In this document: positions 15,364-59,901 of the stretch, piece after piece
How positions within the stretch are numbered: position 1 is the first letter of the stretch
Layout: every line of letters starts with the position of its first letter
Assembly: GCA_036253495.1 (NCBI GenBank)
Contig: GCA_036253495.1_4125.1
From: a phage
Length of the DNA: 64,000 bases
Direction: 5' to 3' (one strand)
Program-made: the position numbers and the translations under genes
Notes under the pieces: model-generated
The model's database searches: none
What the model was told of the DNA's origin: nothing
Seen by the model: only the letters and a program-made list of their open reading frames with translations

Positions 15364-15558
15364 ATGGAAGACAAATCATTCTATGATCGTATCATTGATG
15401 ACAAAGGTGTATTCGACAAAGTTGTATATGACCTTGACATTATGATTAAAAATGCACCAAATCCACGAGTTCGTACTCAAGCTGAGTTTGCAAAAACTTA
15501 TCTCATTCAAGTACAAGCTATTTGTGATGCATTAAAAAAACACAATAATGGAGCTTGA
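15364..15558 (+). CDS. hypothetical protein
   Basis: 64-aa ORF with GGAG SD. Confidence 0.45.
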   Translation: MEDKSFYDRIIDDKGVFDKVVYDLDIMIKNAPNPRVRTQAEFAKTYLIQVQAICDALKKHNNGA

Positions 15559-15631
15559 CAGAAATCAATTATTGTTATACAATCTTTACTGTAACCAACA
15601 CCTATTACAAACTATTTGGAGCTTTTATTAC

Positions 15632-18875
<3,244 letters not shown>

Positions 18876-34170: not shown

Positions 34171-34199
34171 TTGACATATAGATGTGCCCATTGTATAAT
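34171..34199 (+). promoter_or_regulatory. sigma70 consensus promoter (TTGACA-17-TATAAT)
   Basis: Perfect boxes; -10 embedded in palindrome ATGTGCCCATTGTATAATGGGCACAT. Confidence 0.6.
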
Positions 34200-34232
34200 G
34201 GGCACATATTTTATTAATTATCTAAGGATAAT

Positions 34233-34934
34233 ATGATGGCAGATAAAGTTACACACTATGCAGTTGATATTGAATCTTTCGGAACTCCAGAACGTAGTGG
34301 TTATGATATTATCATTCCAAATTACGCAATTGTTTTAGTTCCAACTAACCCAATGAAAGATATCTCACGTTATGCATATGTTAAACTACCATTCCAAAAA
34401 CAAATTGATGCTGGTCTTAAAGTTGATGCAGGTTCAATGAACTTTTGGATGAATATGTGTCAAAATGATCATAAAGGTGCATATGAAGAAGTAGTTAGTA
34501 CACTCACGTTGTCAGAACCTGAGATTATTTCCGGTAGTCAAAACAATTTGTATAAAACAAAAAATGTACTTGATTTGTGGAATGCACTTCGTTATGATCT
34601 TAATGGAAATGAGAACAATATTGAAATTTGGGGTAATGGCTGTCACTTCGATTGTAGTATTCTTCAAGCAAACCATCGTAAAATGTTTGGTGTGGGCGAA
34701 TTGTGGAAATACAATGCACCACAGAATGCCCGAAGTGTTAAGAATCGCCTAACTGAAGATGAAAAATTTGACATGGATTCCATTGTTGATGTACAATTGA
34801 AAAAGTTTGTGGAGATGGTTGCTGATCATGGTCTTTATGGTCTAGAACTTCACCACCCATTATTCGATGCAGCACGTGAAGCTATCCAGGTTTCATATTG
34901 CTTAAATGCAATCAACGAACGCGGAAACTATTAA
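34233..34934 (+). CDS. dexA: DEDDh 3'-5' exonuclease (T4 DexA-like)
   Basis: 233 aa; Exo I VDIESFG, Exo II HFDCSIL, Exo III HHPLFDAAREA. Confidence 0.65.
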   Translation: MMADKVTHYAVDIESFGTPERSGYDIIIPNYAIVLVPTNPMKDISRYAYVKLPFQKQIDAGLKVDAGSMNFWMNMCQNDHKGAYEEVVSTLTLSEPEIISGSQNNLYKTKNVLDLWNALRYDLNGNENNIEIWGNGCHFDCSILQANHRKMFGVGELWKYNAPQNARSVKNRLTEDEKFDMDSIVDVQLKKFVEMVADHGLYGLELHHPLFDAAREAIQVSYCLNAINERGNY

Positions 34935-34944
34935 AGGTAACACA

Positions 34945-36042: not shown

Positions 36043-36593
36043 ATAAGCCTCTGATTTTGTTGGTTGGTGTGTTGGTGATTTTTGTTATTGGTGTGTTTGC
36101 AACTGTAAGTATGTATAGTTCAGCACATGATAGTGCAGTGAATTTTGAAGGTAATATTAAAAAGTACTACGATGCATCTGAAAGTCAACTGAGCAGTTAT
36201 ACACTAACTATTCAAGAAAAGGTTCAAGTATCGGACAAATATAAGGATGCATTGAAAGAGACAATCGAAGCGTACTTTAAGGGACGTGAAGGAGTTGATC
36301 AGAAATTTGTAATGTCACAGATTCAACAGCAAGTTCCAAATCTTGATCCTAAGATTTATCAAGAGTTGATGGTTACAATTGATGCAGGGCGTGAGAAGTT
36401 CAATAACTTGCAGAAAATGAAAATTGAACAATGTACTGATTATGAGAAATTCCGCAAAGGATTCTGGAACTCCAAAATCATCGATTCTAATACATTCCCA
36501 AGTAAAGATATTGAACATTTGTGTACTGTCGTTTCTGATACTCGCACTAAGAAAGCAATGGAAACTGGTATTCAGGAAGTAATTAAATTGTAA
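36039..36593 (+). CDS. membrane-anchored protein, possibly LemA-like
   Basis: 184 aa; N-terminal TM anchor then helical domain; LemA resemblance weak. Confidence 0.4.
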   Translation: MNKPLILLVGVLVIFVIGVFATVSMYSSAHDSAVNFEGNIKKYYDASESQLSSYTLTIQEKVQVSDKYKDALKETIEAYFKGREGVDQKFVMSQIQQQVPNLDPKIYQELMVTIDAGREKFNNLQKMKIEQCTDYEKFRKGFWNSKIIDSNTFPSKDIEHLCTVVSDTRTKKAMETGIQEVIKL

Positions 36594-36600
36594 GTATTTG

Positions 36601-36628
36601 GGGAGTACATTATTGTACTCCCTTTTTA
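36601..36628 (+). terminator. intrinsic terminator
   Basis: GGGAGTACA-TTAT-TGTACTCCC perfect hairpin then TTTTT. Confidence 0.8.
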
Positions 36629-36644
36629 ATAGGATATATAAACT

Positions 36645-37226
36645 ATGTTTTATAATGAAACTCTTAAGTTGTTCGAGCGTATAGCAGAAATCAAAAAGCG
36701 TGCATATGATAATATAATTCTTCCTTATAGTTTTGAATCAGATACTATAATTTTTAAAATGAAACATCATGCTCGTCATTATGAATTTATTTTAGGGATA
36801 AAAGAACCTAAAATTGAATCCAATGTTCCAAATATATCATCATCTATCGCAGTTCCAAGCGGTGTAAATATTACCCACGGTCATCCAATGACAATTGCGG
36901 CAACTTCATCCAATACGATTATTGAGCGTTATATTAAAGTTTGTACAACAACAGCTATGCAAAATATCATATCAGTTGAGTGGAGTGAACTACCAAGTAA
37001 GTTCATTTACTTCACCAATAGTAATGGTACAACGCCTGAGAAAGAATATATGGGTAATAAGATTATGTCAGCTATGATTCTACATGAAAAAACGCTTATC
37101 AATGGTGAAATATATTCATTAGAAGACAATCCAGATGCATTTATTAAAGACATTGAGGGTTCCAATAAATTTAGTATTTTAGAAGTATTAAATCTTGAAA
37201 AGGATTATAAACATGCAATACGATAA
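36645..37226 (+). CDS. hypothetical protein
   Basis: 193-aa ORF. Confidence 0.5.
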   Translation: MFYNETLKLFERIAEIKKRAYDNIILPYSFESDTIIFKMKHHARHYEFILGIKEPKIESNVPNISSSIAVPSGVNITHGHPMTIAATSSNTIIERYIKVCTTTAMQNIISVEWSELPSKFIYFTNSNGTTPEKEYMGNKIMSAMILHEKTLINGEIYSLEDNPDAFIKDIEGSNKFSILEVLNLEKDYKHAIR

Positions 37227-37744: not shown

Positions 37745-38098
37745 ATGTTGATTTACTTATGTGTGCTTTTGGTTTCATTGGTTGTAGCAGTATTAGTACT
37801 GAAAACTATTTCAACTATTCGTTCTAAAATTGATAAACATCAAGAAAATTCTGTTATCGATTTAGTTATGGATTTTCCTAAAATCAGTGCAGCCGTTGTT
37901 TTTGTTGTTATGTTATTTGGAACATACTGCGTAAAAGGCTACCTCTATGGTATGTATGATTGTAGCGTTCGTTCATATTCACAAGGTGTTGAAACTGACT
38001 ATAGCTGGTACTATGGTAAGTGTCGTTTTAAAAATGAACATGGTATTTGGGTAGATTTTGATAAACTACGCGGAACACCATCAGGTGATGAAGAATAA
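37745..38098 (+). CDS. hypothetical membrane protein
   Basis: 117 aa; two hydrophobic segments. Confidence 0.5.
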   Translation: MLIYLCVLLVSLVVAVLVLKTISTIRSKIDKHQENSVIDLVMDFPKISAAVVFVVMLFGTYCVKGYLYGMYDCSVRSYSQGVETDYSWYYGKCRFKNEHGIWVDFDKLRGTPSGDEE

Positions 38099-38592
38099 TG
38101 TTTGAATTTCCTGATGAACAACCAAAAAACTACATTGACTGTACTGAAGATGGATACACGCATATCAATATCTACAGTAAAGGGAAAACTAAGCTAGGGA
38201 GAGATTTATCTAATTTTTCTCCCCATAGCTTTACACTAGAACCATATGGATGGTTTCCTTCGGTTGAGTCTTTTTATTTCTGGTTCCTCACTGGACAACA
38301 GCATGAAGAACTTAGAAAGGTATCAGGAGCCGCAGCGAAAGCCGCTGCAAACAAATATATGCATGACCGTATAGAGATGACACCTGAGCGATTAAATGTA
38401 ATCCAGGATGCGATATGTGCTAAAATAATGCAGAATCCTGAACTTGCTGAACGATTGCGTAAAAGTACTCTGAAGTTTGAGCATTATTATTTGTATGGTG
38501 GTAAGATTATTGATGTTAGTGATGACCACCGTTGGTTTGTTCAGACCTTTGAGGATATCAGAACAGTACTGAAGGAGATGAATAATGGATAA
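38098..38592 (+). CDS. possible NADAR (YbiA/DUF1768-like) domain protein
   Basis: 164 aa; INIYSKGKTKLGRDLSNFSPHSF, FPSVESFYFWF, ELRKVSGAAAKAAANKY parallel YbiA blocks (recall, not searched). Confidence 0.4.
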   Translation: MFEFPDEQPKNYIDCTEDGYTHINIYSKGKTKLGRDLSNFSPHSFTLEPYGWFPSVESFYFWFLTGQQHEELRKVSGAAAKAAANKYMHDRIEMTPERLNVIQDAICAKIMQNPELAERLRKSTLKFEHYYLYGGKIIDVSDDHRWFVQTFEDIRTVLKEMNNG

Positions 38593-38860
38593 AGTGAAAA
38601 TTTGTTGTCTTGAATGTGAGATGTTTGTCACTCCGTCTGATACAATGTTGACAATAGAGGAACAAGTCTTTCCATTAAGAGGTGGCTATATAAAATTACC
38701 AACACCATTTTATAGTACATCTTGTTCAATATGTGGTAATGAACTTGTTCTTCATGAGTTGAATTGCGTTAATATTATGGTTGTAAATGCAATTAGTTCG
38801 TATGCAAAAGAATTGGTTAGAAATGACAGTTCATTTGCACATTTATGGGGTTTCAACTGA
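38585..38860 (+). CDS. small Cys-rich protein (putative zinc ribbon)
   Basis: 91 aa; CCLEC ... CSICG cysteine pairs. Confidence 0.45.
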   Translation: MDKVKICCLECEMFVTPSDTMLTIEEQVFPLRGGYIKLPTPFYSTSCSICGNELVLHELNCVNIMVVNAISSYAKELVRNDSSFAHLWGFN

Positions 38861-38861
38861 T

Positions 38862-39134
38862 ATGAATCATTCAAGAACTTGTTGGATATGTTACAATAAG
38901 GATGTAGATCATACTCTTGAACTTGAATATATGGAGATGAACTATGCAACAGACGTAAGATCATTTTCTGCTGGTCGTGTTATAATAAAAACACCACAAT
39001 ATCAGTGTTTGTGTTCAGTGTGTGGTGGGAATGGTGTATATCGCAATGAGGTTCAAATGGTAAATGATGCTATTGAGCTTTATTTTGGACAATATGTTTT
39101 GGATTTATATAAAAATGAACAAACTAACATTTGA
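38862..39134 (+). CDS. small Cys-rich protein (putative zinc ribbon), paralog-like of 38585..38860
   Basis: Start moved to ATG 38862; CWICYNKD ... CLCSVCGG. Confidence 0.45.
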   Translation: MNHSRTCWICYNKDVDHTLELEYMEMNYATDVRSFSAGRVIIKTPQYQCLCSVCGGNGVYRNEVQMVNDAIELYFGQYVLDLYKNEQTNI

Positions 39135-39345: not shown

Positions 39346-39510
39346 ACATGAAAAAAGAGTTGACAATATTCGTCATTCCAACTATAATGTTGATATTGGC
39401 TCTGGTGTTCCCACAATCACATGTGGTTATGCTTAACATCATAGAACTAATTTTATTGGTAATACACTGTATTGTCTGTTACTATTACATTAACAGTAAT
39501 GAGGATCGTG

Positions 39511-39933
39511 ATGAAGTATTATAAAATTCGTATCATTACCAGTTCAGGGGCATCAGCGTGGATTTTTTATGATCTTCCAGATTCATATACCATCGATGAT
39601 GTAAAAGATTTATACTACGAAGATAACAATTGGGTTTTTGATTTAGAATCCAAAAGTGTAGAGATTGATGAGATTACTGAACAAGAATACAAGATTGGCA
39701 CACAAGCTATGAAGTACTTTGAACGTAATCTTAAAATGTTACAGGAAAATGTGTTCCCTGTAAAAGAATGGGCAATTCTCCTTGCTAATTCCAATAAACC
39801 TGTTAGAATTGGTTATCCAAACTTTCATATGGTATATCGTATGAATGAAAATCGTGAATTGAGTTATCAATTTGATTACGATGCTGCTAAGTTTGGTGTT
39901 CTGAAATCGTTTGAAAAGGCATATCCAGTATGA
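39511..39933 (+). CDS. hypothetical protein
   Basis: Start moved to ATG 39511 (GAGGA SD). Confidence 0.5.
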   Translation: MKYYKIRIITSSGASAWIFYDLPDSYTIDDVKDLYYEDNNWVFDLESKSVEIDEITEQEYKIGTQAMKYFERNLKMLQENVFPVKEWAILLANSNKPVRIGYPNFHMVYRMNENRELSYQFDYDAAKFGVLKSFEKAYPV

Positions 39934-40265
39934 GTAAAGATAGCAAAGAGTTTATGTTGCGTTGTACTTGTGGTGATAAAAATGAACATTGTGTTCACAT
40001 TGCACAATTTGACTTGACAGAAGAACACGGTGATGATAAACTTGGTCAATGTACAGTCAGTATGCGTTTGAATCCTTTTCTTAAATGGTACAAGCGTGTA
40101 TGGGTTGCAGTGAAGTATGTTTTTGGTCGCAATGACTTTCATTACGTAGAAGCTGAAATTGATGTTGACATTCTTAAAGAAGTTGTGTTACAATTAGATG
40201 ATACACGAACTGATGAGGAAAAGAAAGACGCACGAGATAAACGTACTGATGTGAAGGTTTTATGA
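39930..40265 (+). CDS. hypothetical Cys-containing protein
   Basis: 111-aa ORF; ATGA overlap. Confidence 0.5.
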   Translation: MSKDSKEFMLRCTCGDKNEHCVHIAQFDLTEEHGDDKLGQCTVSMRLNPFLKWYKRVWVAVKYVFGRNDFHYVEAEIDVDILKEVVLQLDDTRTDEEKKDARDKRTDVKVL

Positions 40266-40456
40266 ACGTCGAGTTGATTGAAAAAAAGTACTGTACAAAT
40301 TGCAATACAGCGTATACAATACAAGGTATGTTAGTTTGTACAACATGTCAGGCAACAGAAACAGCAACATTTTTGGTTGATGACCGATTCAGTGATTTGA
40401 AACAATTCAAAGCTAATCGCAATCTCCGTAACTTTAGTGATATGAATAAGGAATGA
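40262..40456 (+). CDS. small zinc-ribbon-like protein
   Basis: 64 aa; CTNCN...CTTCQ. Confidence 0.45.
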   Translation: MNVELIEKKYCTNCNTAYTIQGMLVCTTCQATETATFLVDDRFSDLKQFKANRNLRNFSDMNKE

Positions 40457-42515: not shown

Positions 42516-42930
42516 CCTGTTGAATATTGATATCACTAAACTAAAAATTACCGATTGTGGTATGTGTGTCAATGATAAACGTAAGATTGATTATGCTATA
42601 CTTACTGATGGCAATAAATCTCTTTGGTATGATAAATCTGTAGGAATTCAATTTAGACATAGTTCTAGTATTGAAAAGTATTCAGAGACATTAGATTACA
42701 TAAGTAATGGTAGTATTATCTATGTAAAATATTCAGAATCTGGAAAAATTACAAATACCATTACATTCAATGAAAAGAAGTACACTGAAGAAGAATTCTT
42801 TATGGTTAGTACTTTGTATGATTTTGGGTGTATCAGATACTGTGATTATGTTAAAACATTGGACATTTCCAATAAGATCTATTCGATACTTGAGCAATAT
42901 GAAAAGGAGATAGTAGATGACAGTAAGTAA
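42505..42930 (+). CDS. family-1 paralog (TEEEFFMVSTL variant)
   Basis: 141 aa; Q replaced by M. Confidence 0.5.
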   Translation: MISDLLNIDITKLKITDCGMCVNDKRKIDYAILTDGNKSLWYDKSVGIQFRHSSSIEKYSETLDYISNGSIIYVKYSESGKITNTITFNEKKYTEEEFFMVSTLYDFGCIRYCDYVKTLDISNKIYSILEQYEKEIVDDSK

Positions 42931-43327
42931 ATGTTACATTATCATTCGTGAAGACTTAGATATGCCAGTTGGGAAGCTTGCTGCTCAGGCGGGTCATGCG
43001 GTTGATTCTATCTGGTCCACGATTACCGTTGCTGGTACATCAATTCGTGGTTGTAATGCTGTTGGTGAGAACCCAAGAGATGAAGATGAAAAGATCCTGA
43101 ACGATTTCAGTACTTGGGTACAGGACGGTCGTCGCAAGATTATCTTAAAGGCTAAATCTGAAGAACAGATGCTTAATCTATTCGATAAAGTGAAAGCTGA
43201 AGGATTCACTGCAACTAAGATTCATGATTATGGATTCAACCATTTTGATGGTCTAACATTAACTGGATTCGTTGTGTTCCCGTGCACTGACGAAGTTAAA
43301 GCATTGAAAAGGGTAAGATTATGGTAG
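42917..43327 (+). CDS. peptidyl-tRNA hydrolase, PTH2 family
   Basis: 136 aa; CYIIIREDLDMPVGKLAAQAGHAV and KIILKAKSEEQMLNLFDKVKAEGF...TGFVVFP parallel archaeal/eukaryotic Pth2 (recall). Confidence 0.7.
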   Translation: MTVSKCYIIIREDLDMPVGKLAAQAGHAVDSIWSTITVAGTSIRGCNAVGENPRDEDEKILNDFSTWVQDGRRKIILKAKSEEQMLNLFDKVKAEGFTATKIHDYGFNHFDGLTLTGFVVFPCTDEVKALKRVRLW

Positions 43328-56688: not shown

Positions 56689-56825
<137 letters not shown>

Positions 56826-56838
56826 CGAGGAATCCAAA

Positions 56839-57036
56839 GTGACTAAAGCAGAACTTGTAGCATTATTGGAATCATATCCCGATGATGCATGTATTGAAGT
56901 TGTTCATAGTGCGAGACATTTTGACATTGAAGATGTAGTACGTTATAATGACAAAGGTGTACTCATCATGGAACTATGTATTGGTGAAATGAAAACTGTA
57001 CCCGAATCAGAAAAACGTAAAAATAGTAAACCGTAA
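56839..57036 (+). CDS. hypothetical protein
   Basis: 65 aa; GTG start with GAGGAA SD. Confidence 0.45.
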   Translation: MTKAELVALLESYPDDACIEVVHSARHFDIEDVVRYNDKGVLIMELCIGEMKTVPESEKRKNSKP

Positions 57037-57046
57037 GGAAAATAAA

Positions 57047-57265
57047 ATGGAATCTACTCTATTAGAAGTTATTAACTCATTAAACGCTGGCGACAATGTT
57101 CAAGTACTCCTACAGGGATACCGTGTAAAAGGTTCAGTAGTTTTAGTTAATGACACCACTGTTGTTGTAACTGAAACTAACCCGTTTGACAGTAATGAAC
57201 TTGCTAATATCCATATTGATATTAAAAGTATTATTGGTGTTGGTGTAACTAAACCACAAGAATAA
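57047..57265 (+). CDS. hypothetical protein
   Basis: 72-aa ORF. Confidence 0.45.
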   Translation: MESTLLEVINSLNAGDNVQVLLQGYRVKGSVVLVNDTTVVVTETNPFDSNELANIHIDIKSIIGVGVTKPQE

Positions 57266-57286
57266 CAATTGTTATTGGGGATTACT

Positions 57287-57559
57287 ATGCATTTTGAAAA
57301 ATTCAATACAAATCGTAACACACGCATTGACGTTCTTTATGAAACACAAGACTCAATAAGCATTCGTACACGTAGTGGTGATGTATATCATGACTGTACT
57401 ATTGGTTGGGAACAGGGAAGAACACGTAGTGCAGAATTCGATAACTATCGCTTCTACCAAGGGGACACCACAATCTGGCCTGAAGACGTAGAAGATATTG
57501 CGATTGAAGATGAACATAAAGATGAATTTATAAAATTTAATCCCGAAACCGAATCATAA
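57287..57559 (+). CDS. hypothetical protein
   Basis: Start moved to ATG 57287 (track start is TTG). Confidence 0.45.
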   Translation: MHFEKFNTNRNTRIDVLYETQDSISIRTRSGDVYHDCTIGWEQGRTRSAEFDNYRFYQGDTTIWPEDVEDIAIEDEHKDEFIKFNPETES

Positions 57560-57599
57560 ATATTGGAACAGACTATAAAGATGTGATATAATTATTATC

Positions 57600-58018
57600 A
57601 TGATAACAAAATACATGGAACGTAAAATGTGGGGAAACGAATATAAATCAAAACAAGGAAATATTGGAGTTGCTCGTGCAATAGATTACTATGTCACAAA
57701 TGGTTATTCAGTGTCTATACCCATGAATGATACACAATCATATGACTTGATAGTTGATGATAATATTAAATTGTATAGAGTATCAGTAAAACAACATCAT
57801 ATAAAGCACCATCTGGAAATTATAATGTTCAACTAAAAAATAGTGGTGGTTCTAGCGGTAAAAGTGTTATACGAAATTTTGATAAAACATCGTGCGACAT
57901 ACTGTTTGTGTTGTGTGATAACAACGACATATATATCATCCCAATTGATGACATTGATGCACATTCAGCACTTACATTAACTGAAGAACGTAAGAAATAT
58001 ATTAGAAAATTATATTAA
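57600..58018 (+). CDS. Hjc-like PD-(D/E)XK endonuclease gene, apparently interrupted by a -1 frameshift
   Basis: Frame 0 (57600..57836) gives GNIGVARAIDYYVTNGYSVSIP...YDLIVDD...YRVSVK then stops; -1 frame from the GTAAAAC run continues TTSYKAPSGNYNVQLKNSGG...IYIIPIDDI to TAA at 58018; joined length about 138 aa. Confidence 0.4.
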
Positions 58019-58025
58019 AAAATAT

Positions 58026-59714
<1,689 letters not shown>

Positions 59715-59717
59715 TTC

Positions 59718-59873
<156 letters not shown>

Positions 59874-59901
59874 CAAAACGAAATGATAATAGGAAATTAA
59901 A

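Follow-up and report, generated by a model that had tools for sequence, protein, structure and literature searches.

The A4_101 gene and its reading frame

The window analysed here is a stretch of 64,000 nucleotides of phage DNA, and its plus-strand open reading frame at 38098–38592 raises the question of whether it encodes a NADAR protein and on which substrate such an enzyme could act. The original prediction had proposed, from three segments of the translation, that the product was a possible YbiA-like NADAR protein and a candidate anti-defense factor. The reading frame, A4_101, runs from ATG to TAA and encodes a protein of 164 amino acid residues (the end coordinate takes in the stop codon). 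A likely ribosome-binding site, AGGTGA, was read from the sequence at 38083–38088 (plus strand), 9 nt before the ATG. The ATG itself overlaps the TAA of the upstream gene of 117 amino acid residues (TAATG), and the ATG of the downstream gene at 38585 overlaps the end of A4_101. These two overlaps suggest translational coupling with both neighbours, and A4_101 sits in a tightly packed and probably translationally coupled array of same-strand genes.

The region matches Escherichia phage A4 (ON286972, Asteriusvirus, 355.5 kb) at 99.5% identity, and the A4_101 frame is 98–99% identical to a CDS annotated there as a 'hypothetical protein'. When a 3-kb query was compared with other Asteriusviruses (such as PBECO4, slurp01 and Sharanji), nucleotide similarity (∼76%) was observed only across A4_101. 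The protein shares 79% identity with its PBECO4 ortholog, with a pN of 0.13, a pS of 0.85 (saturated) and a pN/pS of ∼0.15, and the nearby genes A4_98, A4_99 and A4_102 show less than 31% identity to PBECO4. As judged from the annotated phage A4 CDS, the wide range of homologs and the pN of 0.13 against a pS of 0.85, A4_101 is a real gene under selection and not a chance ORF; the frame had been predicted with its exact coordinates. Two minus-strand ORFs (38011–38163 and 38392–38631) were rejected as spurious because the phage A4 record does not annotate them and they overlap A4_101, which is conserved and under selection.

Two perfect sigma-70 consensus promoters (TTGACA–17 nt–TATAAT, 12/12 matches) were observed on the plus strand at 34171–34207 and 39360–39388. 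The total number of promoter-like sites in the region was not above the shuffled expectation; these two sites are nonetheless exact. The first lies in the gap between a TelA-like gene and an exoribonuclease gene, and is embedded in a hairpin with an 11-bp stem (34182–34207) that places the −10 hexamer in the loop region. A terminator-like hairpin with a 10-bp stem and a T-rich tail was found at 36600–36623 (plus strand), between a gene ending at 36593 and another starting at 36645. This hairpin and the promoter at 39360 may delimit a putative transcription unit holding A4_101.

NADAR fold and relation to AdfN

When the single A4_101 protein was searched against Pfam (E up to 10) or against PDB sequences, no match was obtained, and the cut-off of PF08719 was not reached. 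The NCBIfam YbiA model TIGR02464 gave a sub-threshold match (E 0.01, 16.1 bits against a cutoff of 73.7), and PF08719 was matched by only 3 of 16 A4_101 relatives (best E 0.035). Given that the single-sequence searches were empty, profiles and fold comparison were required. A profile built from 16 A4_101 homologs (A1) was run against 177,635 distinct PDB sequences and matched three of them, each a NADAR: YbiA (2b3w, E 1.1e-3), P. nicotianae NADAR (8bau, 1.4e-3) and G. lovleyi NADAR (8bat, 0.42). Profile searching for the NADAR/DUF1768 family was therefore divided in outcome, since the library models gave no Pfam match and a sub-threshold TIGR02464 score but the A1 profile reached NADAR chains of the PDB. 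In the A1 profile–PDB alignment, all three segments on which the original prediction rested, INIYSKGKTKLGRDLSNFSPHSF (residues 23–45), FPSVESFYFWF (residues 53–63) and ELRKVSGAAAKAAANKY (residues 71–87), line up with conserved YbiA/NADAR blocks, and the resemblance claimed for them was thus confirmed. The AlphaFold2 model of A4_101 was confident (pLDDT 88.7, pTM 0.82). When this model was compared with viral models by Foldseek, unnamed phage relatives ranked at the top, followed by annotated giant-virus NADAR proteins.

NADAR subfamilies are told apart by a residue of the last strand, which is Glu in the YbiA type, Asp in the DarT1-associated type (BC4488/DarG1) and His in phage gp30.3 (PMC11543638, PMC11125620). 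The gp30.3 protein of T4, namely AdfN, neutralises DarTG1 by clearing ADP-ribose from phage DNA, and its mutants E36A and K43A are inactive (PMC11257639). The alignment of the gp30.3 family (A3) was compared by hhalign with a 54-sequence alignment of the A4_101 clade, which gave a probability of 97.6% and an E of 4.3e-12 over 141 columns. In this comparison, E57 of A4_101 paired with E36, residue 64 with K43, K81 with the 'AAK' Lys of the gp30.3 family, and H129 with H123. In addition, phrog_652 holds A4_101 (5e-43), T4 AdfN (9e-51) and a Kuttervirus homolog. No match for A4_101 was obtained in a search with PF08010 (Phage_30_3); weak sub-threshold matches were seen in 2 of the 16 A1 relatives (best E 0.012) and in 2 of 80 long clade members (best E 4.4e-6, 27 bits against a cutoff of 36). 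As judged from the hhalign score, the residue pairings and the common phrog_652, A4_101 is read here as a His-type phage NADAR of a sister clade of AdfN that lies outside PF08010 as currently drawn. That the protein adopts the NADAR fold and shares full-length homology with AdfN is held with very high confidence.

Membership of the YbiA type was ruled out given that the defining Glu is His129, followed by YYLYGG instead of D..WG. The DarG1 (BC4488) type was ruled out as well, since His129 stands in place of Asp and neither the 20 A4 neighbours scanned nor the 127 neighbours pooled from 46 dereplicated viral loci include an ART or DarT domain. PADLOC gave no meaningful match for A4_101, nor for T4 AdfN, and a library that misses AdfN itself is uninformative here. 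The proposal of a possible NADAR protein and candidate anti-defense factor was supported overall. Of the YbiA-like reading, the NADAR fold stood, but the YbiA type did not, the last-strand residue being His, and the canonical essential Lys is absent.

Comparison with the closest known systems placed T4 AdfN nearest. Besides the full-length profile homology and the common phrog_652, both are free-standing phage genes of similar size (152 and 164 amino acid residues), and both have the catalytic Glu, the last-strand His and the G-x-x-A-K-x-x-G helix. They differ in that identity is only ∼21–23% and A4_101 falls below the PF08010 threshold; K43 of AdfN corresponds to Leu64, and an Arg of its family to Asn85. 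The A4_101 clade has signatures of its own (DG.xHINiYSKGKTxLGR and HYYvYG) and is often fused to DUF4326, SLOG or Macro domains. AdfN occurs in Tevenvirinae, whereas the A4_101 clade occurs in jumbo phages, Ackermannviridae and Vibrio phages. The DarG1-type proteins (E. coli C7 NADAR; G. lovleyi, 8BAT; BC4488) have D171 where A4_101 has His and the Glu+7 Lys (K95) that A4_101 lacks; A4_101 also lacks the N-terminal extension and an adjacent DarT gene. From E. coli YbiA (2B3W; PF08719/TIGR02464), A4_101 differs by the last-strand Glu replaced with His and by HYYvYG in place of E...D..WG, with a score far below the thresholds.

NADAR-Bas32 (T5-like) and NADAR-Bas60 (Vequintavirinae) are, like A4_101, stand-alone coliphage NADARs, and both counter DarTG1; their anti-DarT1 activity has been proven on unmodified DNA (PMC11257639). 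They were found by conserved-domain searches, and the authors placed them near archaeal and bacterial NADARs, not near AdfN (PMC11257639). By these descriptions they are set apart from A4_101, which groups with AdfN and escapes the Pfam NADAR model.

Active-site residues and the absent lysine

Column conservation was computed across 166 clade sequences. The clade signature comprises D18, G19, H22, I23, N24, Y26, S27, T31, L33, G34, R35, L37, N39, F40, G51, F53, S55, E57, W60, R73, G77, A80, K81, G84, K109, L125, P126, H129, Y130, Y131, W146 and R155. The block from D18 to F40 (38149–38217, plus strand; DG.xHINiYSKGKTxLGRxLSNF) takes in the first strand together with a basic loop and the 'SNF' motif of NADARs, and aligns to IINFYSTSDDYGDFSNF of YbiA and to LEISSKSKTTLGVDLSAF of the G. 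lovleyi NADAR in the A1 profile–PDB alignment.

The roles of the individual residues in NADARs, such as the distal-ribose Glu and the essential Lys, have been described previously (PMC11543638, PMC11257639). In the structure of PnNADAR with ADPr, E43 and E125 hold the distal ribose, K75 shields the pyrophosphate, K50 binds the pyrophosphate and the adenine, and R79 binds the pyrophosphate (PMC11543638). The distal-ribose residues are kept in A4_101 as E57 and H129. Glu57 (codon GAG, 38266–38268, plus strand) was found in 166 of 166 relatives and corresponds to E43 of PnNADAR, E88 of E. coli C7 NADAR and E36 of AdfN. His129 is part of the 'HYY' motif (His129-Tyr130-Tyr131, 38482–38490, plus strand), is conserved in 164 of the 166 sequences and aligns with H123 of T4 AdfN. 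Lys81 (codon AAA, 38338–38340, plus strand), in the G-x-x-A-K-x-x-G helix, is likewise kept (165/166) and corresponds to K75 of PnNADAR and K115 of E. coli C7 NADAR. Lys109 (codon AAA, 38422–38424, plus strand), in the NADAR 'aKf.Q' helix, is Lys or Arg in 165 of the 166.

In contrast, two ligand-binding positions are lost. Leu64 (codon CTC, 38287–38289, plus strand) lies at Glu+7, the place of the essential phosphate- and adenine-binding Lys (K50 in PnNADAR, K95 in E. coli C7 NADAR, K43 in AdfN), and Asn85 (38350–38352, plus strand) lies at the position of the phosphate-binding R79 of PnNADAR, with K86 adjacent. Function is abolished by K95A in E. coli C7 NADAR and by K43A in AdfN (PMC11543638, PMC11257639). 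Across the 166 clade sequences, position 64 is most often Ser (38), Leu (30), Lys (27) or Gly (19), whereas the gp30.3 family keeps the Glu+7 Lys in at least 90% of its members (A3 alignment). Because the Lys is absent in 137 of the 166 members, its loss is, as read from the alignment, a property of the clade and not a decay of the A4_101 copy. Of the 137 members without Lys or Arg at position 64, 110 have one within residues 63–69, usually at 67 or 68, and the PBECO4 ortholog has K68. A4_101 and the ∼85%-identical P0002 have no Lys or Arg within residues 63–69, and all invariant residues are kept in both. A check for co-variation with the loss of K64 revealed no position at which the frequency of Lys or Arg shifts enough to name a replacement. 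Given that both the canonical Lys and the canonical Arg are absent, the ADP moiety must be held differently in A4_101; it is probably contacted by conserved basic residues specific to the clade, for which K28, K30 and R35 (SKGKTxLGR loop), R73, K81, K86 and K109 are candidates.

Clade context, proposed substrate and alternatives

A HMMER search over 1.84 billion cluster representatives (clusters at 50% identity) yielded 2,069 matches with E ≤1e-3, 640 of them with E ≤1e-30. By tblastn, the clade was found in 577 phage records, with homologs down to ∼30% identity. Its carriers include Ackermannviridae and Vibrio phages besides Asteriusviruses and further jumbo phages (of Erwinia, Serratia, Klebsiella, Ralstonia and Xanthomonas), and nearly all of the records are annotated 'hypothetical'. 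Among 80 long clade members (A2), DUF4326 was found in 29, YAcAr-SLOG in 19, DprA-like SLOG in 13, DUF488-N3a in 5 and Macro in 3, and the architectures Macro-DUF4326-NADAR and Metallophos-NADAR were observed. One metagenomic protein of 1,415 amino acid residues (P0092) contains a canonical Pfam NADAR domain (residues 10–143), a domain of the A4_101 clade (548–699) and DUF4326 (1185–1274); the presence of both NADAR types in one polypeptide implies that their specificities differ. Seven viral loci of IMG/VR (L024, L025, L030–L033 and L035) each have two ORFs matching the A4_101 clade, and such tandem paralogs suggest that specificity has diversified within single phages. Fusions of viral NADARs with SLOG, Macro and DUF4326 were catalogued by Iyer, Burroughs and Aravind in 2021/2022, as far as the available text of these surveys goes (PMC7824862, PMC9503650). 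Because the fusion partners are the same as those catalogued there, the A4_101 clade, of which A4_101 itself is an unfused member, was probably already counted as NADAR in these surveys, though public annotation does not show so. The surveys are computational and predict soluble-ADPr substrates, and their available text does not mention that this clade has lost the canonical Lys.

In phage A4, A4_101 stands alone in a long run of small same-strand genes without assigned function, and replication and nucleotide-metabolism genes lie upstream of this run. Pfam scans of 20 neighbouring A4 proteins revealed no ADPr-related, ART or DarT gene; their yield was limited to an Rv2179c-like exoribonuclease and a PTH2 hydrolase. 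The gene of the former, a 3′–5′ exoribonuclease, lies at 34238–34936 (plus strand; Pfam E 1.6e-8), 3.2 kb upstream of A4_101. One metagenomic clade member is fused to an Rv2179c-like exoribonuclease domain (E 2.6e-47), and the neighbour and the fusion together hint at a functional link with the clade. The PTH2-type peptidyl-tRNA hydrolase gene lies at 42917–43327 (plus strand; Pfam E 2.5e-18), 4.3 kb downstream, and in two unrelated viral loci a PTH2 gene is likewise one of the two genes closest to the NADAR homolog. Among all six-frame ORFs of the 64-kb window, no paralog of A4_101 and no unfused Macro, SLOG or DUF4326 partner domain was found.

The neighbours were also pooled over 46 dereplicated viral loci (127 proteins). 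Metallophos was the most frequent (3), followed by PTH2 (2) and one each of Macro, SIR2, RNA ligase, Thg1 and DUF488-N3a; neither a DarT nor a conserved partner was observed in this tally. A conserved operon around the clade was rejected, since no partner was consistent across the 46 loci. Metallophos, cREC_REC, nucleoside hydrolase and deoxyribosyltransferase genes are among the neighbours on two metagenomic contigs. A 952-kb metagenomic contig (L007, 8001–12608) has Metallophos, SocA_Panacea and cREC_REC genes no more than 4 kb from a distant homolog (P0015); cREC_REC has been linked to NAD/ADPr processing by its defining authors. The homolog of Kuttervirus SFP10 lies in the rII-proximal early region and adjoins a MazG-like pyrophosphatase and topoisomerase II. 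The context thus puts the gene in nucleotide/ADP-ribose biochemistry and does not fix the substrate.

The preferred reading is that A4_101 would be a free-standing phage NADAR with the activity of an N-glycosidic ADP-ribosylhydrolase. The Glu57/His129 pair would keep the distal ribose in place at the scissile N-glycosidic bond, as in AdfN, and during infection the enzyme would hydrolyse the linkage of ADP-ribose to a nucleic-acid base. The likeliest substrate would be N2-ADP-ribosyl-guanine set on phage DNA by E. coli DarT1-type toxins, and removal of this guanine adduct would allow phage replication to proceed. An anti-DarT1 role is proposed by analogy, given that the scissile-bond pair, Lys81 and Lys109 are kept and that the AdfN, Bas32 and Bas60 NADARs work in this way; we give such a role on phage DNA an even chance. 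Leu64, Asn85, the lack of any Lys or Arg within residues 63–69, the missed Pfam and NCBIfam thresholds, the lack of a DarT-like or other consistent neighbour and the view of Iyer et al. on phage NADAR substrates (PMC9503650) speak against it.

Several other activities were weighed against the anti-DarT1 reading. Iyer et al. argue, in the text available, that soluble ADPr derivatives are the substrates of most phage NADARs (PMC9503650), and A4_101 might accordingly degrade a soluble ADPr-derived molecule, such as cyclic or base-linked ADPr signals or toxic by-products of TIR, SIR2 and ART defences, as one step of a phage 'ADPr clean-up' together with Macro, SLOG, DUF4326 and phosphoesterase domains. 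The domain fusions of the long clade members, including the Macro-DUF4326-NADAR and Metallophos-NADAR architectures, are consistent with this role, as are the polyprotein with both NADAR types, the loss of the canonical ADP-binding Lys and Arg (which fits an altered ligand), and the neighbours, with Metallophos the commonest, Macro and SIR2 found once each and a cREC_REC gene 4 kb away on one contig. It is also the role proposed by Iyer et al. in the text available (PMC9503650, PMC7824862). However, each NADAR assayed, including those of three phage clades, acts on base-linked nucleic-acid ADPr (PMC11257639, PMC11125620, PMC11833690), and no soluble-signal substrate has been demonstrated for any NADAR. 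Moreover, the phage A4 gene is alone, with no Macro, SLOG or DUF4326 gene in the 64-kb window, and the neighbour associations are rare (3/127 at most); a soluble substrate, the foremost alternative, is considered rather unlikely. A related and equally tentative thought is that the 'HYY' clade may be a biochemically distinct NADAR lineage whose ADP-binding half was rebuilt for a substrate other than DarT1-modified guanine; its candidates, a soluble ADPr immune signal or an undescribed base adduct, are put forward with the same reserve. Protection of phage transcripts or tRNAs instead of DNA is more doubtful still. RNA carrying guanosine-ADPr is a known NADAR substrate (PMC11833690), and cytidine-ADPr is one for some NADARs (PMC12945103), so A4_101 could act on guanosine-ADPr in RNA or on cytidine-ADPr from pierisin/ScARP-like or YarT-like toxins, and the exoribonuclease fusion and neighbour, together with PTH2, RNA ligase and Thg1 among the neighbours, would suit such a target. 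Yet these RNA-related associations are single or double occurrences, no ART defence of such kind is known to restrict Asteriusviruses, and AdfN, the closest characterised relative, acts on DNA in vivo.

Loss of activity would be compatible with the abolished function of the K43A (AdfN) and K95A (E. coli C7 NADAR) mutants, given Leu in place of the Lys, Asn in place of R79 and a stretch 63–69 free of basic residues; a catalytically weak or dead A4_101 would then function as a binder, shielding or sponging up ADP-ribosylated DNA, ADPr or a host protein. The conservation of E57 (166/166) and H129 (164/166) across divergent relatives is hard to square with a pure binder, and the Glu+7 Lys is missing clade-wide (137/166) rather than from one decayed copy; P0002 has the same Lys-less loop with its invariant residues kept, and pN/pS is ∼0.15. 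This explanation is therefore judged improbable. The least probable of all, with hardly any likelihood, is a YbiA-like N-glycosidase acting on riboflavin-pathway intermediates in metabolic housekeeping: TIGR02464 scores far below its threshold (16 against 73.7 bits), the YbiA-defining Glu is His in A4_101, and the phage context and the fusions to ADPr domains do not suit riboflavin metabolism.

Phage NADARs are a recently proven enzymatic class of counter-defence (AdfN against DarTG1), and Asteriusvirus jumbo phages of E. coli, together with hundreds of large phages, carry an unannotated sister clade of AdfN that standard domain models miss. If A4_101 is active against DarT1, it would partly explain the resistance of therapeutic-candidate phages to a common E. 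coli defence, and the 'essential' NADAR Lys would be dispensable. If it is inactive against DarT1, the conserved catalytic pair and the Macro, SLOG and DUF4326 fusions would point to a novel ADP-ribose-linked substrate in the conflict between phage and host. Should the rebuilt site of the 'HYY' clade prove true, it would be the first NADAR-type counter-defence beyond DarTG1, found in hundreds of jumbo, Ackermannviridae and Vibrio phages.

Other features of the window were recorded as well. Several genes for small Cys-rich proteins lie directly downstream of A4_101 on the plus strand (38585–38860, 38862–39134, 39930–40265 and 40262–40456), and their products contain paired CxxC motifs (such as CLEC...CSIC and CWIC...CSVC) with the look of a zinc ribbon. 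The product of the first of these genes has 27% identity to its PBECO4 counterpart, a strong divergence unlike that of the NADAR gene. According to the phage A4 record, a homolog of translation initiation factor IF3 is encoded at 15434–15937 (plus strand), and five tRNA genes (Ser, Ser, Met, Asn and Thr) lie among small ORFs at 56809–59877 (plus strand). The same record lists a protease adapter, a GroES co-chaperone and a DUF3307 protein elsewhere in the window, and on contig L010 a DUF3307 gene was found two positions upstream of the NADAR homolog.
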